Positions 6,101 to 30,408 of a stretch of 43,839 nucleotides of DNA are shown piece after piece (position 1 is the stretch's first letter; each line of letters begins with the position of its first letter). Under the pieces are notes generated by a model. The model was not told the DNA's origin and made no database searches. It saw nothing but the letters and a program-made list of their open reading frames with translations. Made by a program: the position numbers and the translations under genes. The stretch comes from Nemertoderma westbladi (lineage: Eukaryota; Animalia; Xenacoelomorpha), in NCBI GenBank assembly GCA_032718475.1, contig JAUCBJ010000171.1, positions 1 to 43,839 of the forward strand. Reading direction: 5' to 3'.

Positions 6101-6143
6101 AAGAGACATACCAACCTTACAACCTTACGAGACCTGGGATTAA
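3102..6143 (+). pseudogene. pol: Element A pol: protease C-terminal half, reverse transcriptase and RNase H (Pao peptidase-A17 region)
   Basis: MLIGTD, RTPIGW, GHYEVGMLW, YYLPHH, KVRIVND, DVEAMFHQV, FGARDSP, FYVDDGL, FDPLGFISP, LHCFSDAS, PRAELQAA, YWTD, WRHCPGPQNPADIASRG. ORFs 3102-4031 and 4038-6143 are in one frame, split by TGA 4029-4031 (probably CGA>TGA). Confidence 0.95.
5753..5927 (+). repeat. 12-bp coding minisatellite (PDxx tetrapeptides) in the RNase H-integrase linker
   Basis: Recurrent CCAGAC; peptide PDVSPDGQPDMLPDVSPDAQPDTLPDSQPDILPDMS... Confidence 0.85.
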
Positions 6144-7896
6144 TATCGGCAGAAAATTAAATTTACCGAAACCCAGTGATCCCATAGAATTTAAACCACC
6201 ATTAGGAATCGACACACAAAGTACTGACAATCAAGGTAAGAAGACGAAGAAGGACAAATTACTTGTAGACCCGGACGGATCAACAGTCAAGAAGGGAATA
6301 CTTACCGGCGGACTCGTGGGCCCATCTAGTAAATCAAAACCTTCCAAATTCTCCATTGACTTACCTGATGACGTCATAAATACTTACGTCGACCGTATTG
6401 TAAATTTGACAGATTCTTGGACAAACGCGTGCCGAAAATTAGCGTGGATTGTACCTTTTGTACAATACGTTAAAGACAAACGCAACTTTACACGTCGACT
6501 CACATTGACTGAGATTGACAGATGTGAAATTAAATTAATTCGCCATTACCAATTGCGATATTTCGCACGCGAATTCACATCTATAAGTCAAGGTCAACCA
6601 ATCAAGTCGTCACCAATATTGAGTTGGAGTCCGATAATTTATAATGGCTTAATTTGTCATAAATCTCGGCTTCAAAACATCGACTTTAATACTGATTTTA
6701 GATACCCGATAATAATACCGCAACATCATGAATTACAACGTGCAATGATACTGGACGCACATTTACATCTGAAACACGCTGGAAGACACCACTGTCTTTC
6801 TTATTTACGTACAAGATTTGTATTAATTAGACCCAGTAAAGCGCTAAGTTCAGTGACACGTATGTGTATTATTTGTAAGAAGGTACATTCTAGAATAAGT
6901 ACCCAAGAAATGAGTGAACTTCCACAAGCAAGACTACAGGCATTCAGACCACCTTTCACAGAGACTGGAATTGACTGCTTTGGTCCCATACATACGAAAC
7001 GTGGACATATACTAGTAAAACGCTGGGGACTGATTTTCACATGTATGTCCAGTAGGGCAGTTCATATAGAACGTGTGATGGATCTTTCCACCAATGCTTT
7101 TATACTAGCACTGCGGCGATTTATCGCTAGACGCGGGCTAGTAAAATGCTTGTACTCAGACCAAGGTACAAACTTTGTTGGTGCTCGAAATGAAATTGCT
7201 AGAGCCTTTAAGAAATTAGATCATGATCAAATCTCAAACGAACTACGTCCTTACAAGATTGTTTGGAAGTTTAATCCTCCAGATAGTCCATGGAGAGGCG
7301 GAGTCTGGGAGAGATTGATTAGATCTATAAAAACAGCCATGGCAAAAGTAATTCCAGTAAACCACATCTTGACAGACGACCAACTGACCACATTGTTTGT
7401 TGAAATCGAGGCAATACTAAATACTAGACCAATAGTATTAGTACCCGATGACAAACAATCCCAGTTTGCTTTAACACCTGCACACCTGCTAATGCAGGCA
7501 CCGACTACATTAATGCCTATTTCGATTCCAACAGAAAGCGATAGCTACGGTAGAAAAGCGTGGAAAATCACGCAACTACTAGCTAACAAATTCTGGGAAA
7601 TATGGCAAAACCATTATTTGCCCTCTATTTCTGCCAGAACAACCTGGTACAACAATACTCGCGCTTTAAAGCCGGGAGATCACGTGCTGTTAGCAGAAGT
7701 GAATTTAAAAAGACGCTTCTGGATAACAGGTGTAATTTTAGACACACATCCATCTATGGATGGAGTGACAAGAACCGTGACGGTATGGACAATTGACGGT
7801 CGTACAGTAGACAGACCGACTCAACGTCTCGTACTTCTTGAAGAGACGCGAAACAAGTCTGGAGATTACAAGTCTCCAACAAATGTTAGTAAATAG
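6085..7896 (+). pseudogene. int: Element A integrase (HHCC + DDE + Pao C-terminal domain), frameshifted from the upstream pol
   Basis: HLHLKHAG...CIIC, GIDCFGP, RAVHIE, YSDQGTNFVGA, PWRGGVWERLI, EIEAILNTRP, LTPAHLL, FWEIWQNHYLP. Confidence 0.95.
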
Positions 7897-8557
7897 TAAG
7901 GAGTTTACAAATAGATTTCCACTTACCTGTACGCTGTAGTAAAGACAGCGGTAGAATTCCATTGTCTTTATATGCGAACATTGAGGGTAGTACCCTTATG
8001 TGTCACATAGGAGCGGGATTTGTAGGTATAAGAAATGGAATTCTACTTGGAACTCACAATATTGAGACATTTTCGAAATTTTAGACAATCCATTTGGATT
8101 TGAAAATTTTTTAAAATTTTCTCCAGTGAATAGATTTCAGGGTACAGTCGGGTGGAACTTAAAATTAGAGAAACAAGAGAATGGAAGACTCGCGAGCCTT
8201 TCTTAAATTTTAATAAAATTTACACGGTCTTGTTTCAATAAGTTACGTCGAATAATATACTTCCCTATATTTATTACTAATTCTTGATTGCTTATTTTCT
8301 GATAATAGTTTGGGAGCAAAAAGTGAGTATTTTAGACTCACAGCCAGTTTAGCCCAAAATCGTTTTTATTTCGGCAAAAATTTTAGATAAGAAACAGCGT
8401 GTCATTAAAGAAACCCTAGATCTTAGGCTATGGGTAGGAGGTTAGAGCGTTGTCGAGCCAAAAGGGCAGACGAAAACTCTCACATCTCCTCACAACTAAC
8501 AATAAACTCTGTTGTATTCCCTCTAGTAGTAATGATTATGTAACCATACCTCTAATA

Positions 8558-11500
8558 ATGGCGAAGGGGATACATGGAGAGCCGAGATAGGGATATGATA
8601 TCCAAGAGGAAGCAGCAGCGCCATTCGAACGATTTGGAGCTAAGGATTACACCATATTTGGAATAAAGGATTTATCAGAAAGTACAGCGAAACTCGCAAA
8701 GACTAAATATGACTCGAATGTATTAAAGAGAAGGCAAAACGCATTAAATGAAAGAATCGAAAGTTTACGCAAAACCTTCAATGAACTTTACCCGTACGAC
8801 GCTTTATGTGATACGGGAGATATTAGCGAAGATCCCGATACCGAAATTAGTCGTTTGTATCATACCATGCAATACCTGAAGGCGCATGAACCTATGCCCG
8901 CGGTACGCGATGAATTCGATGGAATGCATCTTTACAGACGAACTCGAGGGGACGATAGAGAAACGAAGGAAGCATTTTCAGTTTATAAACTTTATTATCA
9001 ATGTGGTGCTTGTATGCACGAACAACGAAATGCGATTCCGATGCGTTTGAATAAGGAAAATCCCGAACCGATATTGGCGAGGTGTTCGAACCATCAACAA
9101 CTACGCTACCAGGAAGGAGGGTATCCTTTATCGAATCCATATCATTCATTCGCTATGTGTGGACCAAAGGCGGGAGAAATTGTCGTTTACCCATCTAAGG
9201 TTGTTGAACCCGATGCATTTGAACTTACGCTGGACGAGGCGACTCAGTCAACCCGCGAAAAGAAGGAAGTTCTTAGCCTATACAGAGCCTACAAGGCTTT
9301 CGAGAAAGGTGAGATGGAAGAATGGGGCGGAAGACTCGCGAGCCTACCTTACCATTGGACGTCACACGATCAAACTTCAGCTAAGGAGATGACACCGGAA
9401 GTTTTCGAGAGTATAAACTTTGCTCAAAACGTTATTCAGAGACTACAGATTGCATCTCCGGAAAGGACAAGAGAAATGCAACCGTATAGTACTTCGACTA
9501 CGAAACCATTGAGTACGACACTCAATTTCCCTATTAGTATACCAGTTCGACAAGATACGACGTATGAAATACCTATTGTGGATCATCCGGAAATCATTTC
9601 GAACTTAGAGTTTCTTCCTGCAGTCGTTCTAAGCGATATGGTTAAGATATATGATTTACGTAGACATATTACGTAAAAGGTCGTGCATAATGTTCCGCCT
9701 CATATTCAAGACTTTAGGGAACTGGATAGAGCTGGCGCTGATATAGCTCCGAGTAACCTGAAAGGATATTTAACCAGAACAATTCGCTTATGGATTGGAA
9801 CAGGAACCTTTGAGTCGGATACAGATATCGCTGCGGACTGGCAAGGTAAAGTCATTCGTTTCGAAGACGAAAAGGACATAGAGAAGATTTGGCAACCTTC
9901 GGAAGAATTACTGGACGAATGGAATAGGACGTTTAGATCGTTTCAGGAAAACGGTTACATGTTTTATGACAACGAGGGCGGCAGCCATCAGCAGAGTCTG
10001 ACCTCCAAGACTATACAAATTAGAGCGGCAGATGGAGTTTTGCACGTTTTCAGTAGACAAAGGAGCGACAAGCGAATGCCGATTCCTCCAGAAAGTACCA
10101 AGCGGCACCATTTCATCACTAATATAGTAAAGAAGATGGACCAGGCTTGCAATATCGATGCTAGAATGTTACCAAAGATGGTGAGAAATATGATTTTAGA
10201 TAAAACCGTTGTAAAGATTGGATCAGGAGTGAGAGAGGACTTAATTAGCGACTTCGCCGGCATGTCGGACAGTGACGACCGATTACCGACACCTTACGTC
10301 GACACTCGACCTCTTATACTGTGGTCTATAGAACAAGGATACTTCCGTGAGTATGATACTCAGAAAACCGGAACTGGATACATTTCCTACCTGATGTTTA
10401 ATTGGGATTACAAGGAAAGTAAAAGAACAAAGAATATCGAAACGTATGGAGAAGGTGATACTCCGGATATAAATGAGTTTGAATCACAGCTCAAATGGAG
10501 AGGATGCGTATATTGGGCTATTACTTCACCTCCAAGAGCGGTACTACAATATTATTTAGCGATAGAGTCATCAGTGAATGTTTGCTTAGTCGCCGACATT
10601 GTGTCTCGGACTCTTAAAAGACATCCACTTTGCCTCGGAGAAGATCATACATTCTACGTGGAAGGGAGAATTCATACCGACGTGTTTAGACGATTTCTCG
10701 AACCCTTCTACAATTCCGACGCTCAGTGTAATTCCTTCACTCGAGCAGGATTTAGTATATTTCGAGACGTGTATCTTCGCTGTGCGGGATCTCTTATCGA
10801 AAGACCATCTATGTTTACATTGTTACCCTATGAAGGAGAACGTATCGTGGAGCTTACGGACGAATCACGGCAGACGCGCGCGCCTATCGGTCACTTAGGT
10901 GATGATTTCGAAGTAACAACGATCATTGACGATCCTTTAGAGGAACTTCTTGAGATTGAAAGGAACCTCCCGAAGAAATCTCAGACGGAGATTCGACAAC
11001 TAGAAGCAACAGATGCTGTAGTTTGCATACAACCTTCTGAAAGATACCAACCTATCGATCCAGACGATTATGATTATAGTGTGGGAGGAAGCGCTCGACC
11101 CATTGAAGATCTTATATATGAACGAGTGTGGTACCCTGCTAATACAATGTGTGGTAAATGTGGCGTCACTGGACATCATTCGACAAAGTGCAGTGGAAAG
11201 CACATTACTACGACTCAACTAATCTGTGGATGGTGTGGAGATCAAGGGTCCCATACATTTTATACTTGCTGGAGATTTATGGCTCAATGCACATACTGCA
11301 ATATAAAGGGACATCGAGCATCTGAATGCCAATTGCGAGACATACCTTACTAACACGAATCTGTAAAACTCGTGCGAAAACTATTTGATGATTGGGAAGA
11401 TTTAGCTGACGAACATGTATCGGCGCAAAGAAGACAGTTCCCGATGAGAGCGCATCTTGGATTTTGGGCGGTAAATCCCCAAACGATGATGTCGGAAGGA

Positions 11501-12280
11501 TATATCTCCGCTATGCCACAATATGACGAACTCATCGAGGTAGTTGATATTTTGCCTCACGATAGTGGATTTCGAGTTGTGCGCGAATACTTGTTACAGA
11601 TACACCCTGACAATAAGAATACATGGAATTTCCAGAAAGTCGTTAATCGTATCACGTATGGTGAATTTGATCGTTTCCGAATGGAAAAGCGGAACAAGGA
11701 AGCTTGGTTAACCGTCGCATGGGCGTACCGAGCCGCGTTCTACCATAAACATATACGAGCGAGCGTATTCGAGGAAGAGGAGGTCCTAGAGGCGACCAAC
11801 ATACCAGCTACTCCGGTCGCGCCGTCTGCACGTCACCCTCGGGAGGACGGACAGCATAGGATCATAAGGGTTCAGAAAGTGGGCCAACAATTAAAGAAAA
11901 CTATCAATGTTGAAGAACGAAGGGGATACGAACCGACTATTCGAATTACACGGGATACGGTTTCGCTTCCCAGAGAACCGCAAGGAGGATCGGGACATAT
12001 ACCAGCTGATCAAAAGGGGGCGCAAGCTTCTCTTGGGTCTGCGTCGCCCGCTTCCCGTGCGTTCCCAGACGTTTTACCAGCGGTAGACACAACCGATCGG
12101 TCACGAGGAATTGGACGAGGATTTGGGATAACTAAGAGACGAATATGTGAGGAAATGGTCGTACCATCTCCCAACGTCCATAGTAAACCAGTGACTCGCC
12201 CCACAAGTCCTATATCACGAGCTAAATCACCGATACGCAGTTTTCGAGGACGCGGCAGAGCGCGATCAGCTAAGCGATAA
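8558..12280 (+). pseudogene. Element A extra ORF (~1240 codons): Cys/His-rich N-terminus + DEDDy-like 3'-5' exonuclease + 3 CCHC knuckles + basic tail
   Basis: ATG 8558 and track ORFs 8855-9676, 9683-11353 and 11372-12280 share one frame, split only by TAG 8588-8590, TAA 9674-9676 and TAA 11351-11353. Exo I GYMFYDNEG (9953-9979), Exo II VVKIGSGVRED, Exo III YLAIE (10553-10567). Knuckles at 11150-11329. Confidence 0.8.
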
Positions 12281-12830: not shown

Positions 12831-13343
12831 TATCTATATTTAGTAAAGATTTACATTTAGAAAGATTTATATTTAGAAAGTGCTATATTTGTAGTCATTC
12901 CAAACTTACGCAATTTATTGTTTCGAATATTATGCAATTTATATTTTATAAAGAAGCAGTATTTGTATTCGCAGTAAATAGAAGGCAAGAGCAGACGGAA
13001 GACTTGTGAGCCTTTCTTGTGATTTATTCCGAACTTATGCAATTTGTTTTATATTTAAGTAGTATTTGTATTTGTGATTGTTTGAATTTATGCAATATTT
13101 GAGATGCAATAGATTTATTTTGGTGAATTTAATTTAGATTTATATTGTACTTACTTAATAAAGCCTTAAATACGTAAAGTTTGAATTTGTAATTATTTTT
13201 GTATCGAATTATTATGTAGAGGTATTATTGTTGAGATTTAATTTGTAAATATGTAAGTACGTCCCAAGTATTCCATAATTTGATTTAGTATTGGTGAAAA
13301 ACGTATATTTTATGCACGATAATATCCTGTTTTCATGGAGCGG

Positions 13344-13975
13344 TATAGAATTATATTCTCATAAATGCCGTGGATTTTCAAAATTTTATTTTGTTCGAAT
13401 TAACTTTGCTATAAAGATTACATTAAGTCCTCATTTGCATTTACCATATCTATTTGTATAACATTGTTCAAGTGGTTCAGTAGCTCAGTCGGTTAAGCGT
13501 TGGAAATTCGTGTAGTAGGTATCGAGTTCGAATCCTAGTAAGTGTGAATTATTTTTTGTGCTGAGTTTCAACTCATTTAAATTAACCGCTACAAATTAAA
13601 TTGCATTTGCTCAAGGTAGATTAACCAATAGGATTGCAGTTATTAGATAGTAACCAATGTCGTGCAAGATACGTGTTCGCTGGACCAATGGTTATCTTTA
13701 AAAACCTATTAGAACTCATAGAACAATCTAGATTTATCTCGATTGATTGCAGCACAAATTTGCTATAAAAGGTGCGATTTTGTTCATTAGTTACCAGATT
13801 ATCACTTATTAGTTATCTATCTCATTAGTTTCTTGTTACGTTTATTGTATATTAGTTTTGTAATAAAAGTTAGAAATACTTGTTACATCTGTTTTTTACT
13901 ATGTTTCACCACGGTGAACCCAACTGAGGGACAGATGGCTGGCTAAACATAGGACCGCGGCGATAGACGGGAACA
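13344..13975 (+). repeat. Putative 3' LTR of element A
   Basis: Follows an imperfect hairpin and GGAGCGG (13337-13343). Contains CCAAT at 13625, 13654 and 13685, TATAAAA 13764-13770, AGTTATC/TCATT initiator-like repeats resembling those in element B's LTR, and AATAAA 13862-13867. Candidate end GGGAACA 13975. It starts TA rather than TG and there is no second copy, so the limits are uncertain. Confidence 0.5.
13474..13557 (+). ncRNA. tRNA-like Pol III unit (pseudo-tRNA or SINE head)
   Basis: A box TAGCTCAGTCGG 13481-13492, B box GAGTTCGAATCC 13524-13535, T6 run 13552-13557. Acceptor and anticodon stems do not pair, so not a functional tRNA. Confidence 0.6.
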
Positions 13976-15205
13976 TCAGAGGAATGTAGGAAGGAGACAA
14001 CCCGCAATATCTATTCTTAAGTTATTCGCCCATCGCCTGAAAGGTTAGACAGCGTTCAATGCCTTGCTACCTAAGTGTAAGACCAAAGATCAAAGGTAGA
14101 GGTAGTGACACGCTGTGCGCTAAAATTACATCTAGGGACCGTACTGTCTTAATTCAGAGAAAAACCCGCAGTAGACCTTCACATTCCTACGGGGGGAGAG
14201 CAGGCAGAAAGATACTAGTACACAGGTGGGACGCAGGCACACCAGTACAAGGCATACACATTGGTAGGGTGCAGCAAACTGTACGCCTAACTCTTGCTAA
14301 GTATAGGTGCGTCGGTGACTGTTTGTAGTACAACGGTGTCCATTGCATTAGAACTTGTAGGCTAGAAGGGTTACTGTGTTTTACCTGAATTAGGATTGTA
14401 CCGTTCAGGCGGTAGGGCAGTTTACCACTAGGCGCAAATAAATTGAGGCTATTTAGGGATACTAACATCTACCGTGTCCCCGCCGACATTCTGTTAGGAA
14501 GTTGCCGTGCCCATCTAGGCAACCAAAATTCTAGATAAGAACGCCAGGCTAGCTATTTGTAACAGTACGCCTACTGTAGTAAACTAACACATTTCTTCTT
14601 AGTATTAGGGACCTGGTAAATTAAATTGCCGAATTCTGGGCGTAGTATTAACCTTATGCCTGAATTTGAGTCCTGGAAATACACAAAAGGGGAAGGAGCC
14701 TTATCATTCGTGAGTATTGGACCTACAAGTTACAAAATTAGAATATTTGTAAAATGTACACCGGACCCAGTAATTATATATGTGAAGGATCAAAACTGAT
14801 TTTGACTGTTAAAATCAATACACGCACGCGTTAGAAATTATTTACACCTCAAAATATATAAAATAATTTTTGTCCGTACTGCGCTTTGCCCACTAGTTAG
14901 ACCTTTCTGCACCTAGCTAGCGTCTCTTTATCCCAACCATATAAATCACACCGCGGCAAAGTATACGAGCGCCCTTAGTCCGTCAGTGAGTCAGCCCGAT
15001 TTTAGGATTCGCTGCGCGGGATTTTGTTTTATCGAAGTTTGTCCGTTCGTAGACTGTTTTCTGCCTCACCGGTTATAAGAGACCGATACTGCAATATATA
15101 TTCGCTTACTTAGAGTTTACTGTTTTGGTGAGAAGGCCGGATTTATGATTTGATTCACAGACTTTACAGTAGGATATTGCAGGTATTAGGTACGTCTCTT
15201 CGAAT

Positions 15206-15940
15206 ATGCATAAACTCAAAGATTAGTTAACTGAGGAATGATTCTTAGTTCAAATACATACTTCTATGCTTCCCACTACTATCACCCTAAAGCATTAATA
15301 ACACTCCTGCCCTCCAGGTTTCATACATTACATTAATACAGTGCACTAATGTAATCGCCATTATAATGGTAAAGTATGGGACAATTTTCAATTGGCCACC
15401 ATGATATTTCTGAGGGAGTAGATTATGAAACTACGGGTAATTGTTTCTTAAGATGAAGCAACACAAACGTGCTTTGCATTCCACTGGGTGATTGGGCTGA
15501 GTTAGATTACTTCTCTGTGTATAAATTAAAATTTCACTATTTTTTGGTAAAGTATGGGACTTTACATGCATAAACCCAAAGATTTCTTGACAGAGGAATG
15601 ATCTCAGATCAAATATAGACTCCTATTCTTACGGCCGACTATGACCTTAGAGTATTATAACACTCATGGCTTCACATATTACATTAATACAGTGCACTAA
15701 TATAATCGCCATTTTGATGGTAAAGTATGGGACAATTTTCAATTGGCCGCCATGATATTTCTGAGGGAGTGAAGATGAAACTAATTGTTTTATACGATGA
15801 CGCAACACAAACGTGCTTTGCATTCCACTGGGTGATTAGGCTGAGTTACATCTCTGTGAATAAACTAAAAATTTCACTATTTTTGGTAAAGTATGGGACA
15901 TCACAAGATTAACTTTATCGATTTCATTACAGAGGAATGA
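15206..15940. repeat. ~360-bp tandem duplication (2 copies plus a trace of a third)
   Basis: ATGCATAAAC(T/C)CAAAGATT at 15206 and 15566; shared TTACATTAATACAGTGCACTAAT, GGTAAAGTATGGGACAATTTTCAATTGGCC and GCAACACAAACGTGCTTTGCATTCCACTGGGTGATT. Confidence 0.9.
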
Positions 15941-17307
15941 AACACTGGTGAAATTAAATAAAACCTAAAAAATTCGAAAATGGGTTTGTTTTTGATTTGG
16001 TACATGCTCAGAAATGTTAATTTATTGGTCATAGAAAGTGCCTACAGGAAACGAAACTTTTGCACACTTTTATTCACATTTTGTGCAGAGCAGGTGCATA
16101 ATTTGTAATTCGACTATTTTTGATAAACCACCTGTGTTGATACAATTTTTAGCACTGAATTCAGGAAGTACGATAAATTTTGACCTAAAATAAGTATAAA
16201 TTCAAAGCTACATCTCAATTTTAGAAATTAGTGGGGAGGTTGACCTTTTCATGGAATGAGCCATTAATGATATCCCTACGCTAAGGCTCACCTTACTTCG
16301 TGGCTCGCCCCACAATGGTAGTTATTTAATTTATTTATATCAATATCTGATTTTATTATAAAGAACTATTTAATTAAAATTAATTTAAAAAATGGAGATT
16401 TTTCATCTGTATACCAATGATATACAATTAGTAGTAGTATACTGTAGGAGTAAATAATTAATTTGATGCAAGTGCTATATGAAGAATGGCCAAATAAGTA
16501 ATCCCAAACTCAACTCAAACTCACACTAACCAGACATTGTATGGGTGTAGTTATGTTATATGTATAGTTGTATATGTGTAGTTATACTTAGCCTATTGGT
16601 TACCATAGTTACCTTAGTCACTCTCATATAAATACATAAGTAATTAATTATATACTTAATTATTTATATCGCACGCGATGCGACTTCACATTTCCTCCAT
16701 TGATTGATTGAGGTGAGAAAATCTGAACGGCCTGTTTCCCCTAGATCGTAGGTATTCTTATGACGATTAAATGGAAGAACCGGAGTACCACGATCAGGAA
16801 AATCGTAAAAACCTTTGAAATGGTTGAGCCTCTCGCAGTCTCGAGAGATTCTTCCCCATTTGTTATTATTTACTATTTTTTTATTATTAGGGCCTACATT
16901 ATTATTTGTTCGTTGTTAAGGAATCTCATCAGAAACTGTTCCTCGGTAGCGATGTATGGCCGGGATATGCCGACTCCATAAGCGCAGGAGTGATATTGCC
17001 TCTTGCAACAAATAGGTGCTGCACAGATCCCTCTTATACTGTATTATAAATACTGTGTTGAAATAATTTTATGTATTGTTTTTATATTTATATTTTTTTA
17101 TTGTTTATAATAATCTAATCAAGGAAAAGTTAAATTTTAAGATTTTTAAACAACAATTATTTTTAGTTCGTATATAATTTATCCAGTTGTTTTACGTATT
17201 TTTTTCCTCTTTCGTCATGGAATCTGATTCACATTTCACATTCAGACATTCCACTTTTCGTATGTTCTACAACTGAGCTTCTTAAATTCTATAGATGTGA
17301 GGTATTT

Positions 17308-17531
17308 AGCGGGTGTAAACACTAAGCCGACAAATGACACCTGATAACCACTGCCGACAACGACAAATACGAAACAGTAGCCTATAATAATGGCACTCGT
17401 TTATTGTTTTGGTAAGAACAGCATTCCATTGTAACCTGTTCCATTACCTTAATTGATAATTAACAATAATTTGTTTCAATAATGATGGTCGGTTTTGATT
17501 GTCGGTTGTCGGCGTAGCGTTTACAACTGTA
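17308..17531. mobile_element. Small MITE-like element with imperfect terminal inverted repeats
   Basis: TGTAAACACTAAGCCGACAA (17314-17333) vs TTGTCGGCGTAGCGTTTACA (17506-17525): 18/20 inverted match; internal CCGACAA/TTGTCGG subrepeats. Confidence 0.5.
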
Positions 17532-17547
17532 TTTAGCTTGAAGTTAG

Positions 17548-18106
17548 TGTTAGCTTATTCAATTCCGCTAACACAAACCCATAAAGTAAGCCGTTAAGCA
17601 ATATTGGGGGCCACGAGGTTGATTACCCAATCTCGTGCCACCCCAATAAAATGGGAAGGAGAAACACACAATAAGGGTCAGGGGCCACACCCCTGACCGA
17701 GAGAGAATAGTAGGAGTGAAGGGAAACACTCCAAAGGGCGCCAACAGAGACATTAGCCAATGGGAGGGAGGCACCGGCTAGGTAGAGTAACAAGGCCATC
17801 CCGTGCAATATAACCAGTTTACAGTAATCAGTTATCTCAGTTATCTCATTGTGTTGGTCGGTTTAGCTAGGGTAGAACCGGTACTTCAATTACCGTCGTC
17901 GTACCTACCGTATCTGAGACTTCATCATTGTATATTCCAGTTACCTCATTTATACCATTATCTATTGAACTTATGCAACTATACTATTATACCTGAGAAC
18001 TTTGTACAGCGAACAATAACTCTTTACCTTTTACACACACACGGCGGGGACGCGACGCGTGAATCGAAAACCGGATAAACCGGGATCCTCTCTGGATCCC
18101 GTCACA
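17548..18106 (+). repeat. 5' LTR of element B
   Basis: TGTTAGC...CGTCACA; matches 31112-31670 except at 17567, 17785, 17799 and 17993. CCAAT 17757, TATAA 17809, TCAGTT 17828 and 17837, 8-bp hairpin CGGGATCC/GGATCCCG 18081-18101. Confidence 0.98.
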
Positions 18107-18417
18107 GTAATTGAAACCTAGCAGCTACCCTAATAGTAATTGAAGTCTAGAACTCCAACCATACCGATCTAAAGAGGAGATGAGTGACGTAACGCCAACG
18201 CGGACCCCGGAGGAAGAACCAACGATCTGCGAGGCCGTAACCAGACGGTATAGGCCCACGACGCCGGACCCATCGGTAATGGGTCATCCGGCAGATCAGG
18301 ATGAAGGGGGCCGTCTGGAGCCAGAGATCGAGCCGAGAGGAGCGGGAGCCGAGTTGGGAGAAGGAGAGGGCGAGAGGGACGGAGAAGAAGACGAGTCGAC
18401 ACGGAACGAGGGTCGAC

Positions 18418-18639
18418 GTACCGATGTCGCCGGCCAGCCACAGGCCGAGGGCGACGAACGGCCCACCGAAACGGCGACGGTGGGGCCGACGGTATGATGC
18501 CGGACCCGGAGAGATGGGGGAGATGTCGGTACCGATGTTGCCGGCCAGCCACAGGCCGAGGGCGACGAACGGCCCACCGGAACGGCGACAGTGGGGCCGC
18601 CGGTACGACGTCGGACCCGGAGAGACGGAGGAGAGGTCG
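18418..18639 (+). repeat. 111-bp (37-codon) tandem duplication in gag
   Basis: GTACCGATGT(C/T)GCCGGCCAGCCACAGGCCGAGGGCGACGAACGG at 18418 and 18529. Confidence 0.95.
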
Positions 18640-19298
18640 GCAACGAGGACGTCGGGGTTTCTGATCGACTTCGACGGGCCTACAACGCGACCCGGAAGCT
18701 ACTCAAGGAGGCCAAGGAGGGGGCGAAGATAGATGAGGTAAAGTTAACAACAGGACTAGGTGAGTCGGATAGACATTTTAATTATCTAATGCGCTTTGGG
18801 CAGAGAGAACTGGCCAAGGAGAGAGCGAGAGGGGTTGCAGAGGAACTGTGTGATTTATGGCGGTGTAGGGGTATGCAACCTATTGCAGTGTACGTAGGGC
18901 CATACTTAGCCGATGCCCGGGGTATAAAATTTGTGGGTTGGAGGAGACCTGAGGAGGGTGAATCCGAGGTTGACCCCGAGGATTCGGTCTCGTCGGTTGG
19001 AAGGAATTCCAGTTCCGGGAGGCGGGGGAAAGTTAGTAGATCGGGAGGGCGGAGGGAATCCGTCACAACCGATAAGTCTGCTACATCCTCCGTAAAAGAA
19101 AGACGGGTGAGAGAGATATATGCCGCGTACCATTTCGACCTGATAGCGCAAGGTCAGAGAGAAATAAATAGACGGTTTGAGGAGGGGAGAATGCTGCTGG
19201 ACAAGGAAATGGAACTGATTAGAGAAACCGGAGAGAGGGCCGAAAGGGCCGCGAAAAGCCTTAGGGACTGTGAGGAAATAGGGAGGAAGGAGCAAGAG

Positions 19299-19497
19299 GA
19301 GCGTGAGGCGAGAGAGCAGAGCGAACGCAAGGAGCGTGAGGCGAGAGAGCAGAGCGAACGCAAGGAGCGTGAGGCGAGAGAGGAAAGCGAACGCAAAGAG
19401 CGTGAGGCGGAACGTAAGGAACGTGAGGCGAGAGAGAAAAGTGAACGCAAAGAGCGTGAGACGAGGGAGGAAAGTGAATGCAAAGAGCGTGAGGCGA
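19299..19497 (+). repeat. 33-bp repeats encoding a charged coiled coil (EREAREQSERK)n
   Basis: GAGCGTGAGGCGAGAGAGCAGAGCGAACGCAAG, about 6 copies. Confidence 0.9.
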
Positions 19498-20157
19498 GGC
19501 GAAGGGAGGGAGCTAGGAGAGAGGCGGAATTGGCCAACCAGAACGCACGGGAGTGTCGGGAGAGAATAGCAAGAGAGAAGCTTGAGCGGAAAGAATTGGA
19601 AAAACGCCAAAAGTGAGCTTATAGAGTACAAAGCTAGACACACGTGCTAACTAGAACTGGCGCGGGTAGGGGCATCTGAGAGCGGGACTGGCTCGAATAT
19701 TTTCGAGGAGCCAAGGGCCGTGGATACATTTATTAATACCCCACTTACAGGGACCGCACGACAGACACGAAACTGTTGTGACCATACGGGCGGGGGGGGG
19801 GGGGGGGGTAATAATAATAATACAGTAGACGACGTTATTATTAATAGTACCGTATTAGATAACCCTAACCAAGCCTTTATTGCAGGAAATACTTTACCTA
19901 GTAGCAGTAATTTAAATTTAAATACAAATAATAATTTCAATTTAAACGTGCAAAATAATCCGAATAATAATTTAAATTTAGAAAATAATAATAATTCAAA
20001 TAATTTAAATAATGATCCAAGCCCGAATTTACAAAATAATTTAAATAGTGTAGTCGCGCAAAATAATCCAAATGATTCTGTTTCGAACGAACAAAATAAT
20101 TCCGTTTCTAATATAGGTGCTATTAACGCGAACTCGTCGGACGTGTATAGCCTGACA

Positions 20158-20337
20158 GACGGCGGCCTGGTAGGCCACGTAGTTGGTAGGTAGGAGGTGG
20201 TGGGGTTGAGTCGACCCGACGGCGGCCTGGTAGGCCACGTAGTTAGTAGGCAAGAGGTGGCGGGGTTGAGTCGAGCCGACGGCGGCCTGGTAGGCCATGT
20301 AGTTAGTAGGCAGGGGGTGGCGGGGTTGAGCCAACCC
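20158..20337 (+). repeat. 60-bp x3 repeat in gag (DGGLVGHVVSRQEVAGLSRP)
   Basis: GACGGCGGCCTGGTAGGCCA at 20158, 20218 and 20278. Confidence 0.95.
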
Positions 20338-22644
20338 GGAGTAGGCCCGATCGGCCAAGTACTAGTGGAGGGAGAGGCAGGGGTAAGTGAACCCAGCCGC
20401 AGTGAAAATGTTGTGTCGACTGGAGAGGGGTGTAGAAGAGAAGTAAGAGGTAGCGGTAAAATATGTGGCGAAAGGGGGGGGGGGCTACAGGAGCCCCACA
20501 ACGAGAAGTTGGTGGCGAGAGGGGGGGGGGGGGCAGAGAGTGTCCCACAGGCGTCGGCGGATAATGCGCGGGCCGAATCAGGTAAACCGCAACACCCGGC
20601 GACGGAGAGTAATAGGGGGATTGCGAGTATCCCCAGCGGCGTGCGATCGACCAGAGAGAGGCAGGTTGACGTCGCGAGAGGGCAGACGAAGCGTCGAGCC
20701 CGATCAGAAGAGGGAAGAAGAACAGTGGGGTTTAACCGGGAGGTCGACGAGAGATCTCAAGAGCGGGAATACTGCACTGAAGGGAGAAGAAGAGAAGACA
20801 GCAGAAGAAGTATTGCCGCGAACGACAGGAGAGTGAGGACGGATAGTGAGCCGTTGGTAGTCGAGATGGAAAGAGAGAGTCGGTGGGGTCGAACTTCGGG
20901 AGATTGCCGTCGTCCCGGAGAGACGCGACCTGACGAGACGCGTTACGCGTCGAGAGAGGGGTACACGATGTACCGGCACGAAGACGAGAATAGTAGAGGG
21001 GGTCGAAGAGAAACTTTCCGACGGGATATACCTACAGATCGAGAGTACGGTAGCTGCGGGGAGGATTATTCGAGAAGAATAAACTTCGATCCCGAGCAAT
21101 ACATACAGACTGTAGGACATACTATAGGCCTTACTGCACATACCATAGGCCATGCTGACAGAAATAATGTAGGCGATAGGATAGCGCGGACAACGGAATT
21201 AAACCCGGAAGTCGCGGAGTACATACCGGCAGGTAGGCCAGAAACTGATAGGCCTATACCGGTACCAGTACAGCAGTATGACTACAGCATGCAAGGACAT
21301 AACATATACCCAGGGGAGGGGGGAATTATTGCGGATAGATGCATGGGCCCCAATATATTAACATCAACCCCAGTACCAAACATACCGGTGGGGGGGGGGG
21401 GGGGACAGGGTGACATTCCCCCATCGCAATATCAACAATATACCCCGATAGGAGCAAGAACAACGAGACCCTTGGATGGAAATAGGTCATGTGACACAGA
21501 AATATGGAGGGGGCCGCTACCCCCAATGATATACCCAAGCCAAAGAAAGGCAGGAAATATGACGGGCGGACCACACCCAACAGGATAAATTATACAACAT
21601 CCATCGAATCCATTGGAAGCGCAGGCGATGGGGATGACCACGTTGATCGATGCATTAAAAACAAGGATCGAATTACCACCCGTGGAACCATTCAAATTCG
21701 ATGGGAGTAGGCCGGAAGAATATCTCCAGTTTCGGCGTATGTATAGTAACGAAATACTAACAAAGAACTTGACACAGGCGGAGTGCCTAAAGTATCTGCA
21801 AGTATACACAGGAGGCCCAGCATACGACATCGTGAGGCAATATCAGGGCATAGAGGGCGGTTTCACGACGGCATGGCGGGCACTGGACAGGGAATACGGG
21901 CACCCGGCCAAGATCATCAGGCAGACCCTGAGAGGCATAACATCGGGTGGCCTACAGGATAATCCCGTTAGCATTAAGACATTCGCGAACAAGGTCGAGA
22001 AGGCGCTAATCGTGTTAAAGACGCTAGACGCGCCATATGAACTCAACGCGTCCAACAACATCACCACGATAGCGCAGGCACTACCGATGTGGTTGCGCAA
22101 CAAGTGGAGGAAAATCGCTTTCTCCACTCGAGATAGGAAGGGTGCGGAACCGGGTTTAGAAGAAATGTCAAGCTTCTTAAACTACGAAGCTGAACTAATA
22201 ACCGACCCAGTCTATAGCGAAGATAGCCTGGGAAAGGGACCGAAGACGGATTACCATAGACCGAAACCAGAGCACAATATGTCAAACGCATTACCGAAGC
22301 TCAGGCAATCACTGCCATATGCAGCAACGCAGGGGACTGCAAGTCCACAGGTAGCCGAAGGAAAGACCACACCATGGAATGGACAGGGGAATAACAACAA
22401 CACGAACAAATATAATCCCAGTACGTCCAGTAGGCCGAACCCAAACAATAAGAATAGTAGGGACTTTGGTACAAACGCAGCTGCGATACGCAATGCACTG
22501 TACAAGGACGGCTACGACCCAAAGAGCAAATGCCAGCTACATACAAATGCGCTTCATCAAACCATGAACTGCAGGTACTGGCAAGCGCTACCCAGGGAAG
22601 ATCAGGTAGAATACGCGGCGAGGAATGAGATCTGCTCATGATGT

Positions 22645-24880
22645 GTGATGAGCGGACATAGAGCTAGGCAATGCAAGGAGACGCCGGTCAAGTTCGGTCA
22701 AAGGAAAGGCCAAACGATAGCAACGAGCACAGTAGGGGCGAGGAAGAGAGGAACGGTGCTACTTGGGGTAGTGCCTATGCGAGTGATTGGAGAAGGCAAT
22801 CGATCAGTAACAACACTAATGCTGGTCGATAGTGGAGCTGCCTTCACACTAGTCGAGGATTGGGTGGCCGAAGAAATAGGATTGAGAACGAGGCCAAGTA
22901 GAATGGCGGTAACAACCATCTCCAGTAAAGATGAGGTCCTGGAGATGAGAACCGGACGGTGCACCATCGCAGCAATAGCACCAGGATGCGATTATGGGGC
23001 GAGCATCGACCCCATCCAAGTGATAGAGTCAATAAACATCAATGCCAGACGGCCAACCAACATCGAGGTCGAACAATATAAATTGCTGGATGATAATCGA
23101 CTTCTCAATCCCAGAGGCGGACGTTAGGAAGGTATCCATCATAGTAGGAATGGACTGCCCAACGGCCCACGAAAGAATGCAAACGGTCTTCGGCGAAGAC
23201 AAGCAGTGTGACCCGGTGGCGATACTGACACCATTCGGGTGGACGCTGAGTGGCCCAATCAAGAGTAAAATACCATTTAGGATGTCGGAGACATCAGGAT
23301 GCATGTTCGCGGGAACTATGCAGGAAATGGGTGACGAGAGAGCAGAGGAGCAGCTTAAGAGACTGCTCAGACAGGATTTTGAAGGATTAAAGGAGATCGG
23401 GGTCGGGACCTCGGTAGAAGACAAGCAGGCTCTACAGAGCGTAGAGGAGTCTATGAGGTGTGATGAGGGGCGGTATACCATAGGGATGGTATGGAAGCTA
23501 CCAAAGCTACCGCTATCCGATAATAGAGGGATGGTACTCACGAGGCTTCGTAAGTTGAAGCAGACACTAAAACGGAGCCCCGAGAAGAATGAGTACATCC
23601 ACAGAACGATTAAGAAGTACGTCGAGAAAGGATGGGCCGTGGAGTTACCGGTCGACGAACCAAACACAGATAGGACGTATTACCTACCACTCCACGTGGC
23701 TTTAGACCTGAAGAAAGGTAAACTGCGGATGGTAGTTGACGCATCGGCAAAGACCAACGGAAAATGCTTAAACGACTATCTACTAGAAGGTCCGAACATA
23801 TACAACTCAGGGATAGAGGTCCTACTTAGATTTAGAGATGGGAAACACGCCTTCACGTGTGACATAGAAGGCATGTTCAACCAAGTCCGTGTAGCGGAGG
23901 AAGATAGCGACAGTCAACGCTTCTTATGGTACAACGGAGACGAAGAACCGTCGATAATACCGACGCACAAGATGGTAGTACAGAACATGGGAGCCAAGTC
24001 GTCTTCATTTACGACGACTATGGCAGTAAGAGATACAGTGAAGGGGAAGGAGGATAGATACAGCACTAGGGCCGTCGATATGATTCGAAGCGGCTTCTAC
24101 GTAGACGACGGAATGGAGTCTGGAAATACGGTTAAGGAGATACTGGACACAGGGCGCGAGGTTCACGACATCCTGAAAGGATCCGGCTTTAACCTGACCA
24201 AATTCCAATCCAGTTCGGAGGAATTTATCAAGGCGATAGGGGACGAGAGACCAGAATCGACTATGGATAATCCCACAACAGCCAAAGGGCAGGACATGGC
24301 AAACAAGAGGACAGAGTCTCAACAGAAGGCACTGGGAATCGTGTGGGACAGAGAGACAGATGAACTGAAGTACCAGCTGAGCCAGGAGGGCACAGACGTC
24401 CACACAAAGAGAGGCTATGTGTCATACATAGCAAGAATATACGATCCCCTAGGTCTAGCATCCCCACTATTAGTCACGGGGAAACAGATACTCAAGAGAG
24501 TATACAAACTGAAGGATGAGTGGGACGTAGAGGTACCAGAGGAGATCAAGAAACAGTGGTGTAAGTGGACAGAAGATTTAGAGAAGATGGGAACATACAA
24601 CATAGCGCGAGTGTATTTTCCGGATGGGAACATGACGAATCTGGACCTACACATGTTCTCCGATGCGTCGTTGGAGGCATACGGAGTGGCACTCTATTTA
24701 GTACAACGAGAGGGGGCTCACAAGCCCAGACTGGCCTTTAGCAAAGCAAAGTCAACGCCGCCAGATTCAGCATCATTTCCCAAACTAGAATTGACAGCTG
24801 CCAGACTAGGAGTTAGGGCCACAGCCTACCTAGTGGATACTATTCCCAACATACACACTACTGGACGGATTCCATGGTAG
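22645..24880 (+). pseudogene. pol: Element B pol: protease, reverse transcriptase, RNase H
   Basis: LMLVDSGAAFTLV, IIVGMD, LTPFGWTLSGP, YYLPLH, KLRMVVDAS, DIEGMFNQV, FYVDDGM, YDPLGLASP, LHMFSDAS, PKLELTAA. Frameshifts near 23090 and near 24860 (HYWTDS continues in the next frame). Confidence 0.95.
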
Positions 24881-26736
24881 TGCTTGGCTGGCTACATAAC
24901 GAAAAGACGAGATACCCTATATTCGTCGCGAATAGGGTGGACGAAATAAGGGCGACCACAGAATTGGAAAGGTGGCACTACTGCCCAACGGACGAGAACC
25001 CAGCGGACTTGTTATCGAGGGGCGTGGCACGCCACACTTTCTTGAAGAAGGAAGTATTCTGGCAACACGGGCCACAGTTTCTGAGCGACAAGGAGGCCTG
25101 GCCGCCGATGAGAAAGGTTGACCCGGGCTCAGGAGAGGTAGTGTCAGAAGGAGAAGAGGGAGATTCAGAGGGAGAAGAGATATACTCCCAGATGGTGAGG
25201 GAGATAAGGGACGTGCAACCTAAACCAGAAGAACTGTGCGATAACCCGACGGATAAACTCCTCAACTACAGCTCTAGTTGGTATAAGACCAAGAAATTAG
25301 TGGCGTACTGGAGAGCCTTCAGGAATTTCCTTGCGGGAGTTGGCAAAGGCAAGAAGATCAGGGCAACAATAGATCTGGAAGAAGCGGCCAAAGCAGTAAT
25401 CCGCTATGAACAACGGAAGAGCTATGGCGACGAGGTGGAACGCGTCGGTAAACAACAGCATCTCCGACGGGATAGCGAGTTGATCACGCTGTCACCACAA
25501 CTTAATGACGACGGGATTCTAGTAATGAATTCTAGGGTGGGATACAACAACAGCATAGTCGTACCACCGAAACCCATCATCATTCCCACAGGATCGCCAA
25601 TAGTCCACCAGATTATCTGGGACTCCCACAAGTCGATATTGCACGGGGGCACCAACCGAACCCTTACGGAGATACGGAGGACCTTTTGGGTCAAGCAGTT
25701 GAGGAAGAAGGTAAAAGCAGTAGTGGGGCAGTGCCAGACCTGCCGACGAGCGAAGAAGGAGCGAGCCATACAAGAGATGGCACCACTACCAGCGAGTAGA
25801 GTAAGACAGCACGACCCACCATTTACACATTGCGGTGTGGACATGTTCGGGCCGATAAAGATCAAGGTGATGCGGCACACGGAGAAACGCTACGGTATTA
25901 TCTTCGTATGTAACAACACGCGGGCGGTAGGGATAGAACTCGCCCAAGATGCAACCGCATCAGCATTTATTAATGCATTAGAAAGGTTCAGAGACCGCAA
26001 AGGTGGGACAATCGCAGTAATGTACTCCGACAGTGGAACCAACTTTGTGGGAGCAGAGAATGAGATGGCAGAGGCCTTGGACATCTTGGAAGGGGAAGAA
26101 GTCAGGGCAGCCATGAGACGACGACAAGTAAAGTGGGAGAGAAGGACGCCGTATGCACCACATACACTAGGATGCATCGAGATACTAGTGGGCAGTTCGA
26201 AGCGTCTCATGACGAAGTTAATGAACACCCACATGGTCACGGAGGACATCTTGAGAACAGTACTTGCGAAGTGCGAGGGTATCATTAATAGCAGACCGCT
26301 ATATCCGGAGAATGATGACCCTGAGTCATTAGATGTGCTGACGCCCAGCCATTTTCTAATGGAAAGGCCAGCGACCATCGATATGCGGGGTGTAGACCCA
26401 GATGACATACACTCCCGCCAGAGTTGGAAGGTCGCTAAAGCGATAAGCGCAGAGTACTGGAGAAGGTGGGTTGAGGAATACCTACCCATGCTTCACAAAA
26501 GAAGCAAGTGGAGGAAGTCGAATAGGGAGTTAAGAGAGGGAGATCTCGTAATCGTTATGGATGATACTATCATCAACAACCAGTGGCGGTTGGCAAGAGT
26601 TGTAGGCACTTACTCCGATGAGGACGGAAGAGTCCGATCGGTAGAAGTGCGGATAGGTGGCAAGATAGGTGCGAAAGACAGAAAACCCTACAGGAGAGCT
26701 GTAGGGAAATGCTGTCTATTAGAAGGGGCACCTTAG
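24874..26736 (+). pseudogene. int: Element B RNase H C-terminus and integrase
   Basis: FVANRV, WHYCPTDENPADLLSRG, HKSILHGG...CQTC, GVDMFGP, YSDSGTNFVGA, EGIINSRPL, LTPSHFL, YWRRWVEEYLP, DGRVRSVEV. Confidence 0.95.
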
Positions 26737-26845
26737 ATCGTTTGTTAGAGAAGAGTTTAGTCGTCCAAGTTTTGGACTGAGGGGGGTGGGATTGAGGGCG
26801 AGACGCCCTTCCCACACATAAAAATAAAAATAAAATGAATAAAAA

Positions 26846-27385
26846 TTAGAGTTAGTTAGTTAGGAGTCAGTTAGAAGGTACGTAGTACCTATAATTAGAA
26901 TTAGTTAGTTAGGAGTCAGTTAGAAGGTACGTAGTACCTAGAGTTAGTTAGTTAGTTAGTTAGGAGTCAGTTATAAGGTACGTAGTACCTAGAGTTAGTT
27001 AGTTAGTTAGTTAGTTAGGAGTCAGTTAGTTAGAGGTGTTAGAGAAGTAGTAAGAGGGTACGTAGTACCGGTGGTTAGTAGAGTTAGAGGTTAGTAAGAG
27101 GGTACGTAGTACCGGTTAGTAAGAGTAGAGCTGGAAGTTAGTAAGAGGGTACGTAGTACCGATAGTTAGTGGAGTTAAGAGTAGTAAGAGGGTACATAGT
27201 ACCATTAGTTAGTGGAGTTAGTTAGAGGGTACGTAGTACCATTAGTGGAGTTAGAGTAAGAGTTAGAGGGTACGTAGTACCGCTAGTTAGGGAGAGAGAG
27301 AGTAAGAGTTAGAGGGTACGTAGTACCGCTAGTTAGTTAGAGGTTAGTAAGAGGATACGTAGTACCGATTAGTAAGAGAGAGAGG
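26846..27385. repeat. Tandem array of 11 GGTACGTAGTACC hairpin motifs in (AGTT/AGAG)-rich spacers
   Basis: Motif starts at about 26877, 26926, 26977, 27057, 27101, 27148, 27191 (variant), 27228, 27269, 27315 and 27354 (variant). Confidence 0.92.
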
Positions 27386-27850
27386 TAGAAGGGTATATAT
27401 AGTATATATATTAGTCAGTAGTTAGTAGCGAGAGGGGGGCATATGAGTACAGTTGGATAGATCGTGTAGGCCACACGACATATACTGCTGTACTGCACAG
27501 GCCCATAGAGTAGGTCAGAATGCGGATTATGGAATAGAATAATCCATAAACAGTAAAGTAATAGAATTAAGTTAAATCAAAATAAATAGAATAAATAGGG
27601 CTAAAATTACAGATTATGGTAACAGCAGGGAAACTATTCTGGAACATACTTAAAGCAACGGACAGAAATTGTAAATTAGGGTACATTTCTTAGCTACAGA
27701 ATTAAGTAATAGAAATTTAGGCTAAAAGGCGTAGTTAGATAGGAAATAGGCCATTCTCGAACTGTGCAGACCATCAGAAACTAATCACTCATCTGTATTG
27801 CGCCTTGGTAAGGCACCACCTCTACAGGTGAGCGAGTGAGAGTGTTCGGA

Positions 27851-30408
27851 ATGGCGGGAAAACTGATCAGAAAGAGAAAGGCGGAGCAAGGAGGAAAGGA
27901 GATACTGGTGGATTTCACCAAGAGGCATCCGGAAGAGAAGACGAGAGGATACTACGAGAGGTTGGAAAAGGGTCACGCGGCACGCAGGACCACTTCCGGG
28001 AGATGCACGAACAGTGGCTGGTCGGGACATACGGGACGCCGTCGCTGGACAACGCGATCTTCCAACACTTCCACTACGTGGTGAAAGGGGACGAGGCGAA
28101 GTTCGGGATTCCGAAGTACCTGAGGGAGTCGCCGAAGAAGGATTGGAAGAGGTTTATAGAGTCCGTCAACAGGGGAGGATATATGATCCTAGACGACGAG
28201 GGAACCATGGAAGACTAGGAGGGTTCGAGACGAGGATCAGCAGGGTCGGCCAGGACCATACTCCTACATTTGGCCGCGCCAAATGGGGACATTTTCTTAT
28301 TCGACCTAGGAACGTATTGGAAAAAGGACGGGCCAAAATTAAACCGGTTGCCGAAAGCGGTGCAAGTCCTGGTAAGAGAGAAGTCGACGACGAAAGTGGG
28401 ATCGGCGATTCATGAGGACGCGGAGAGAATCATCGGTCCGGACGCCACCAACCTCCTGGATATGCAGAAGGTCTTCATGGCTATGACAGCACCAGACGGG
28501 TTGGGAGTAGTCGGGAACACAGGTCAACGCGGAGCGGTGGCAATGGGCCAGCTATTGGGGCTCGTATGCCACAAACCGATGGACTGGGGGAAGTTCAGGG
28601 AGGAATACGGAGCAGAACTAGCGAACTCGCTAAAGTGGGGAGCGAGACCAGGAAGGCAAGAGGTATATCAATTCCGCAGAGGAGCGATAAAGGTATATCA
28701 GAAGCGATATATCCTGCAGGAAGATTGGATAATGATAAGTTTGCTCAACTTATTCATGACCGTGGTTATCGAGAGGGAACCAGCGGCATTTCTGTTATCG
28801 GGATCACCCCTAAGCTACAGGAGAGCCTTTAAGACGGCCTTCGACGGTCTGGTAGACCACCCGGGGCTGAAGGGCGAGTCGGTGTACTACAACAGCCGAC
28901 ATCTGATAGACGGGGAGATAGATACGCCGTATCAGAGATGGGAGCAGCTAGAGACGGATAGACGAGAGGCAAAGCGACTGGAAGAAGTCGCGAGACGGGA
29001 GAGGATAGAAGCAGAGGAGAGGGAGGAGGAGGCCAGGACGCAGAGTTACGGCTTCGAGGAACAGGCAGGCTTAGACGAACTTCGTTGGACTTCATCAGGG
29101 AGTTCGGGGGAGTCTCTAGGGCGAGAACTGGGATGGACGGTGGGATCGCCGAAACAGTCGACGTTGGGGTTGCAAGCGATGCCCATACCAGCGGGCGCCG
29201 AAGGCGACCAACCGCTAAGGAAGTTGAGGGAGCTAGAGGGATGGAGAGCTACGGGCGAGAGCCAAGGCGGGAAGGGACATAGTGGATCCATCGGGATACC
29301 GGGGTTGGAGCCACTGCCAGAGGAGGACGAAGACGACGATGAGTTCGGAGAGATGCCGCCCATCGAGAGGATTGGCCACTCGGACACGGACTGGGTTGGC
29401 GGGAGGGTGGTGACGGCCAGTGGGGCGAGGGCCTTCTGGGATAGACCCGGCAAGCCGGCCTGGGTGCACGAGGAGCCGGCGATGGATTTCGCGGGGAGCA
29501 CTATCAGGTTGGGTGAACAACCGGGGACGGCACCACGGGTAGTATTCGGGGAGACGATGCCCGAGAGGGGCGAGGAGATCGACGTAGACAGGGACACTAA
29601 CGTGCAGAAGTTCGCCTACCAGCGACTCCACAGACCGCGGAGATCGCTTGGGACGAAAGACGACGTGGGGCGGGAGACATTGGTACTCGGTTGCGATTAC
29701 TGTGGGAGACAGACCCACCAGGAAAGGAGCTGTTTGTACCGATTCCAAAAGGGGACCTTTTGTCTCTACTGCCGCGAGTCGAGCCACAGGATGGGGGCGT
29801 GTCCACGGTTGCATAACCGATGTCCGAAGTGTAACTTTCGGGGACACTACGGATGCCAGTGCGACTGGATGGACGACGAAGAGAAGTTCAGAACCTTCGA
29901 GGAGTGGGCCGACGTCGGGGCCATGATGCGCCAGCGCATGAAGGCCCAGGAGTTCAAGTGGGGTTTCTTCCTTATCAATCAGGAGGCTCACTTGGAAATC
30001 ATAAAGCGGAGGTTACCGTTTACCTATCAAGAGGTAGCAACGGCGGCGTCGTATGCCGGAGTGATAAATACACAAAGGTATTTGGACAGGTGGACGCCAC
30101 AGAACCAAGGGGAGTTTAGGGATTTCCTGGCGGAGCACGTGCCGCGGGCAATGAAGATGATCTTATGGGATGCCACCACGGGGAGACAACAGGGCCACTT
30201 GGAGGGGCCACCTGCGAAGCGATATCGGGAGCTGATAACACCAGCACCCAAGGAGCCAACGACCGGGATCAGTAAGGAGGTGGCGGCGAGGGTCCGAAGA
30301 CAGAAAGCGGATCCCAGAGGAGCGGTAGTGACCAGGAAACGACCCAGGGAGGAGGACGGCAAAGGGAAAGACTTGAGGTGGTTCCCAAAGTCAGGGGGGA
30401 TGAACTGA
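27851..30408 (+). pseudogene. Element B extra ORF: DEDDy-like 3'-5' exonuclease + acidic linker + 3 CCHC knuckles + basic tail
   Basis: ORFs 28003-28218 and 28270-30408 are in frame across TAG 28216-28218. Exo I GYMILDDEG (28177-28203), LHLAAPNGDIFLFD, Exo II TTKVGSAIHED, Exo III YILQE (28708-28722). Knuckles at 29692-29862. Start uncertain (ATG 27851 needs a frameshift; alternatively ATG 28003 or splicing). Confidence 0.82.

Follow-up and report, generated by a model that had tools for sequence, protein, structure and literature searches.

Element B, an LTR retrotransposon of the BEL/Pao type found in a 43,839-nucleotide window (the whole stretch of Nemertoderma westbladi DNA that was analysed), has no tRNA-type primer-binding site, and it likely primes minus-strand DNA synthesis with its own RNA in a Tf1-like manner by using an internal primer. 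Fold-back self-priming in a BEL element was the central claim of the original prediction, and it stands as the best-supported reading, with which 8 of 10 testable relatives agree; the transcription start that it employs was placed from sequence motifs, and its steps are ones that we infer.

Element B is a young BEL/Pao retrotransposon

Self-alignment of the window places element B at positions 17548–31670 (14,123 bp; all of its features given here are on the forward strand), bounded by a 5′ LTR at 17548–18106 and a 3′ LTR at 31112–31670. Each LTR is 559 bp long and runs from TG to CA, and the two copies differ by four substitutions (99.3% identity). The 5-bp target-site duplication GTTAG is present on the left (17543–17547) and on the right (31671–31675), and a polypurine tract (31103–31111) lies directly before the 3′ LTR. 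Element B is a young, or recently inserted, LTR retrotransposon. Its gag-pol region (18180–26736) is of the BEL/Pao type and encodes DUF1759, an aspartic protease, RT, Peptidase_A17, integrase, and DUF5641; several stops and frame changes break the coding sequence of this copy. Pfam E values are 2e-11 for DUF1759, 5e-6 for the protease, 1e-37 for Peptidase_A17, and 2e-24 for DUF5641, and the domain order is gag, PR, RT, RH, IN, as in BEL/Pao. The nearest integrase homologs, which have the same domains, are 30–36% identical.

Element B belongs to BEL/Pao by its proteins only. It has the paired LTRs, target-site duplication, polypurine tract, and domain order of that group, but it departs from the ICTV profile, which gives a tRNA-Arg or tRNA-Gly site of 18 nt and a length of 4.2–10 kb and describes replication as poorly understood (PMC8742986). 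The departures concern the tRNA primer site and the length (14,123 bp versus 4.2–10 kb), and the first of these is shared by element B and most of its testable relatives.

Five DNA runs of one organism contain parts of the window, and contigs from four DNA runs reveal that the element B family is multi-copy and has two LTR subfamilies. The second subfamily (runs X1–X3; 17846–18091) aligns over 17846–17896, after which a different segment replaces 17897–17978, and this break falls just 3′ of the candidate primer described below. A repeat array with units of 37–90 nt and a palindromic GGTACGTAGTACC-type core occupies 26850–27400, between the integrase and the accessory ORF. No relatives of element B were found in viral contigs.

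The primer-site position is complementary to the LTR

The internal region begins at 18107, directly after the 5′ LTR. As predicted, no TGG follows the LTR at this point: the first occurs at 18280, past the first ATG at 18180, which precludes binding of an intact tRNA by its 3′ end at the post-LTR position. Instead, the bases at the primer-binding-site position (18107–18115) are the exact complement of 17885–17893 within the LTR, a candidate self-primer that ends in AC and is followed by C. The predicted distal helix likewise holds, with 18125–18132 being the exact complement of 17868–17875, and 18136–18146, which begins 29 nt from the LTR end, is an 11/11 complement of 17883–17893. Three separate leader stretches consequently pair with one 26-nt part of the LTR; the copy at 18136–18146 is a duplication and is not independent of the first complement. 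That the duplex ends exactly at the LTR boundary is borne out by the LTR pair and the target-site duplication, both of which fix 18107 as the first internal base. Promoter-like motifs are located at 17757–17842, namely CCAAT at 17757, the anticipated TATAA at 17809 and initiator-like TCAGTT at 17837, and an additional TCAGTT at 17828.

To gauge these matches, we compared them with LTR sequences shuffled by dinucleotides. Offset 0 yields a 9-nt complement in 82 of 20000 shuffles, and offsets 0–3 do so in 225 of 20000. When offsets 0–4 are allowed the count is 36 of 2000, and it rises to 111 of 2000 in the widest search, in which a spliced route is also allowed. The trinucleotide ACC accounts for 17 of 557 in the LTR. 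Matches of at least 9 nt to the LTR begin at 25 of approximately 12980 internal positions, and therefore it is the position of the site, not the length of the match, that is unusual. The second helix is weak evidence by itself, as a helix of at least 8 bp arises in 2165 of 20000 shuffles. The primer-site complement of element B is a real feature; considered without the relatives, it is modest evidence for self-priming.

A further exact complement of 7 nt exists between 17777–17783 and post-LTR bases 10–16 (18116–18122). It would lengthen the 9-nt match to 16 nt, lies approximately 100 nt upstream of the candidate primer and upstream of the inferred start, and has no splice-type ends.

Among the best 12 of 144 matches, all with short overlaps, contigs from other runs show no insertion where the LTR gives way to the internal region, and their first internal bases are those of this copy. 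One family contig aligns up to 18115 and resumes at 18195, with under 31 letters flanking the LTR end on either side; this short overlap may be taken as a weak hint that the 9-mer has been retained while the remainder of the leader varies. In the contigs of the four DNA runs, no piece spans the LTR end with as many as 31 letters to its left and to its right.

RNA folding predicts a clamped duplex at the LTR boundary

Folding of 17839–18180, which had been proposed as a check, yields minimum-energy and centroid structures that both hold the two helices. For RNA starts from 17548 to 17860, the predicted pair probability is approximately 0.6 for the proximal helix (17885–17893 with 18107–18115) and approximately 0.85–0.9 for the distal 8-bp helix (17868–17875 with 18125–18132). 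The symmetric 9×9 internal loop of the original prediction was counted correctly, but folding fills part of it with three further pairs (17880–17882 with 18116–18118) beyond a 2-nt bulge. An 8-bp hairpin at the LTR end (U5; 18081–18101) adjoins the primer site with a pair probability of 1.0, and this predicted stem-loop can be set beside the one at the LTR end that Tf1 reportedly needs. Over its full 342 nt, the region is only marginally more stable than its shuffles (z −1.67). The 9-bp duplex has −7.3 kcal/mol, and none of the other eight duplexes in the comparison is as short or as weak (−9.2 to −12.1 kcal/mol in the relatives).

The choice of RNA start affects which complement is predicted to pair. 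For every start upstream of 17868, the second copy (18136–18146) has a pair probability of 0.0 with the LTR partner. An RNA starting at 17883, by contrast, is predicted to place the partner on the second copy (0.97 versus 0.02 for the primer site). Because that copy lies 29 nt away from the end of the LTR, a start at the primer as in Tf1 agrees poorly with the modeled structures, which are compatible with a start farther upstream and a distal helix that acts as a clamp. The second copy, which is also changed at three positions in one contig of the element B family, is probably not a working site.

Most testable relatives carry self-complementary primer sites

A scan of metagenome contigs returned 80 BEL/Pao loci that are 30–39% identical to element B in integrase, 56 of which span at least 4.5 kb; a long-range direct repeat is present in 29 of these 56. 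The test set comprised 10 elements from other genomes whose LTR end is fixed by two copies, although the second copy of L067 stops at the contig end and the copies of L053 are 74% alike. Excluded were L065 (of the same family as L067 and likewise grouped among the LTR-intron cases), L047 (whose repeat lies in coding sequence), 9 collapsed contigs, and 8 loci with unfixed ends that were tallied separately.

Eight of the 10 relatives have a self-complementary primer site of 10–12 nt at offsets 0–4, and the letters differ in each. The LTR complement is contiguous in L014, L037, and L053, whereas in L033, L064, L067, L073, and L075 it exists only across a GT–AG intron of 71–164 nt within the LTR. 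With either route allowed, the shuffle counts are 7 of 1000 for L014 and, for 400 shuffles each, 12 (L037), 11 (L053), 3 (L033), 1 (L064), 1 (L067), 2 (L073), and 13 (L075). The remaining two elements have TGG sites without a self-match, as reflected by shuffle counts of 396 of 400 for L007 and 249 of 400 for L023. L064 also has a TGG at +2, and given this it may be tRNA-primed. The splice donor is GTAAG in four of the five intron cases under a script that required GT and AG alone. In L033, the partner begins approximately 30 nt after a TATA box, so that the spliced RNA may start with it, as Tf1 RNA does with its primer. Among the eight loci with unfixed ends, four (L003, L030, L038, and L050) beat all 12 shuffles, L010 and L016 tie the best shuffle, and L069 and L074 are within the shuffle range.

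The partner ends in AC in element B and in seven of the eight self-complementary relatives, and the next base is C in element B and in six of the eight. An AC end followed by C recalls the end of a tRNA, and it could be a signal for cutting or what remains of a TGG-type site. The presence of a self-complement in 8 of 10 relatives makes a stronger case for the signal of element B than its own sequence affords.

The phylogenetic setting was examined with two FastTree trees, one for integrase (76 sequences, 358 columns) and one for RT plus integrase (50 sequences, 752 columns), both midpoint-rooted and without named reference elements. The named BEL/Pao clades are Pao, Sinbad, BEL, Tas, Suzu, Flow, and Dan. 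In both trees, the TGG elements L007 and L023 share one clade that does not include element B. Element B forms a long branch, which lies between the TGG and self-complementary clades in the integrase tree and beside element A, L005, and L033 in the RT plus integrase tree. Given integrase identities of 30–39% and a tree position that differs between the two trees, likeness does not establish that the signal is homologous between element B and its relatives.

A model for self-priming by element B

In the proposed mechanism, transcription would start near 17830–17839, as suggested by the CCAAT, TATAA, and initiator-like motifs; the usual spacing of promoter motifs gives a start at 17830 or 17839. 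The resulting RNA is predicted to fold back on itself, with the primer duplex held in register by the three further pairs, the 8-bp distal helix, and the U5 hairpin. A nuclease, which by analogy with Tf1 might be the element's own RNase H, would then cut after 17893. The 5′ fragment of 55–64 nt would remain paired, and its 3′ end would be extended from the last LTR base, yielding a strong-stop DNA of approximately 213 nt that would transfer to the 3′ repeat. The model would require an RNA end downstream of the cut. AATAAA or ATTAAA is present downstream of the primer in the LTRs of six of the eight relatives; neither is present downstream of the primer in the element B LTR, which has only AATAAC at 18015.

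A broader proposal, on which we are evenly balanced, is that much of BEL/Pao is tRNA-independent and uses an internal RNA primer that ends in AC and is often spliced from an LTR intron, with element B representing a deep, exonuclease-carrying lineage whose primer is unspliced and helix-clamped. How BEL/Pao elements begin reverse transcription rests on assumption. If the self-priming reading is true, this mode of initiation would reach a third LTR superfamily, with an internal primer, a shared AC end, and a construction that is often based on splicing. It would presumably make these elements independent of host tRNA and of tRNA-fragment silencing, would explain why primer sites are missed by annotation tools, and predicts RNA ends at 17893/17894.

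Alternative explanations for the complementarity

If the site were instead to bind part of a host tRNA, either a half or an internal fragment, or some other RNA of the host, the LTR match would reflect coincidence or regulatory cover, which we regard as unlikely. Seven of the nine partner bases (17885–17893) resemble what we take to be a tRNA T-loop motif, a likeness that we count in favor of tRNA-fragment binding. Precedents are offered by half-tRNA primers in Ty1/copia lineages (excerpts of PMC6317226) and by an internal tRNA-Lys match reported for FunCo1 (excerpts of PMC5445492), and ICTV gives BEL/Pao as tRNA-primed (PMC8742986). However, the eight relatives would need eight different fragments, and each site matches its own LTR, in five cases only across a splice junction.

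It is improbable to a similar degree that the pairing, as a genuine RNA structure, serves a different function, such as packaging, dimerization, or translation control, and that priming proceeds by another route. Three leader stretches directed to the same 26 LTR nucleotides exceed the needs of a primer, and conserved hairpins with no known mechanism occur at the primer-site position in fungal GalEa (excerpts of PMC5445492). Against a role of this kind, the duplex is at the LTR boundary in element B and 0–4 bases off in all eight relatives, and the AC end is shared, which is the geometry of a primer.

We consider it less probable still that the match arose by chance and that a deletion removed the tRNA site of this copy. 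The coding regions of the copy are defective, and the widest search reaches a match in 111 of 2000 shuffles. Its LTRs are nevertheless 99.3% identical and its target duplication is intact, contigs from other runs show the same post-LTR bases among the matches listed (the best 12 of 144, with short overlaps), and the AC|C end is common to element B and its relatives.

Finally, a 16-nt primer joined with unusual ends from LTR segments 17777–17783 and 17885–17893, comparable with the splice-built primers of five of the eight relatives and drawing on an exact complement of post-LTR bases 10–16 that overlaps AG|GT, is very doubtful, because both the TATA and the initiator motifs are located downstream of the 7-mer, such a match among approximately 340 upstream positions has a chance of about 2% by simple arithmetic, and neither LTR has a GT–AG or GC–AG intron of at least 20 nt with a junction match of at least 8 nt. 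A splice-built primer for element B was rejected on the same absence of an intron; the best junction match, of 6 nt, is reached in 1468 of 2000 shuffles.

The accessory ORF and neighboring elements

Element B carries an accessory ORF (27997–30408) with CCHC knuckles and an in-frame stop at 28216–28218. The family of this ORF is likely a DEDDy 3′–5′ exonuclease, as judged from profile comparisons: a profile of 19 sequences, elements A and B included, matches EXD2 (E 1.2e-10), a CCHC-containing nuclease-like chain, and WRN, and the accessory domain of element A resembles WRN-like clusters with a score of 0.93. Relatives of the element B ORF number 57 and are linked mostly by zinc knuckles. Pfam returned no match for the exonuclease-like piece of element B alone, and a word-index protein search with the accessory ORF gave no matches. 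The suggestion that this exonuclease trims the primer is not supported, as the distance from integrase to the 3′ LTR is 80–387 bases in the eight self-complementary relatives, which leaves no gene room after integrase, compared with 4376 bases in element B. An exonuclease requirement for the self-complement signature is rejected on the same gene space downstream of integrase.

Another BEL/Pao element in the window, element A (approximately 1700–12280), is highly divergent and has an ORF at 8591–12280 that contains an exonuclease-like domain and CCHC knuckles. Elements A and B group in the RT plus integrase tree with a value of 0.996 and long branches. No paired LTRs were found for element A in the window, and two LTR-like ends chosen by eye gave matches of 5–6 nt only. 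Unpaired LTR-like stretches (TATA, AATAAA, ending CA) were noted by eye at approximately 13600–13887 and at 1140–1381. A tRNA-like (SINE-like) stretch, also identified by eye, lies at 13472–13545 and has no ARAGORN or Rfam match; no tRNA genes were found in the window, and a search of 13000–18400 with Rfam gave 0 matches. LINE-type reverse transcriptase pieces are present on the minus strand at 34091–39327, with inverted partial copies at 33271–33762.

Comparison with known systems

No report of BEL/Pao self-priming was found in the literature searched, a scope in which the slash form of the name is unsearchable and which lies outside subscription journals and Repbase notes. It is absent from the excerpted text of PMC4600332, PMC5341516, PMC5445492, PMC6934838, PMC5443660, PMC3601003, and PMC8220671 and from the reference list of PMC11042837, and the words primer, PBS, and tRNA are absent from the main text of a BEL/Pao survey (PMC3118150). 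A literature search for a DEDDy exonuclease in LTR/Pao retrotransposons gave PMC5408684 as the sole match.

Element B resembles BEL/Pao (Belpaoviridae, Semotivirus) in its LTRs, polypurine tract, gag-PR-RT-RH-IN order, and specific Pfam domains. Unlike the elements described by ICTV, it is 14.1 kb long, has no tRNA site, and carries an accessory ORF of exonuclease-like character instead of env. A DEDDy-type 3′–5′ exonuclease is likewise encoded as an extra ORF of an LTR element by ORF3 of bdelloid Juno and Vesta (PMC5408684, in the available excerpt), but those elements belong to other lineages and the element B ORF adds CCHC knuckles. The conserved hairpin site of fungal GalEa similarly lacks a tRNA site and has a 9-bp inverted repeat at that place; both arms of the GalEa repeat are internal, with no LTR complement found in the excerpted account (PMC5445492), whereas the partner in element B resides in the LTR.

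The groups listed as self-priming in excerpts of PMC6317226 are Tf1/sushi, Tcn1, and TAR. As in the TAR lineage (Houba as well as Osr-1; Ty1/copia), self-priming of element B is predicted from sequence and falls outside the Tf1 group (PMC6317226, as excerpted), but TAR elements are plant copia elements of another superfamily with another domain order. The closest parallel in arrangement is with Tf1 and Tf2 of Schizosaccharomyces pombe, Tj1 of S. japonicus, Tf1/sushi, and Tcn1, Ty3/gypsy elements that also have no tRNA site and a post-LTR complement to their own LTR (excerpts of PMC7175516, PMC4600332, PMC5341516, and PMC6317226). The Tf1 group primes with a cut piece of its own RNA, and for Tf1 this has been shown by experiment, with RNase H cutting between bases 11 and 12 of the RNA and thereby freeing the primer (PMC7175516, in excerpt), whereas for element B it is predicted only. 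Element B also differs in being BEL/Pao and not having a Ty3/gypsy chromovirus-type polyprotein. Its complement is 9 nt, followed by a predicted 2-nt bulge and three pairs, in place of the perfect 11-nt complement of Tf1, and its 11-nt match is that of the second copy. The Tf1 primer comprises the RNA's first 11 bases, whereas that of element B would be internal and would end at +55 to +64 if transcription starts at 17830–17839. By analogy, then, element B would work like Tf1 in its self-priming, but it is not a member of Tf1/sushi.
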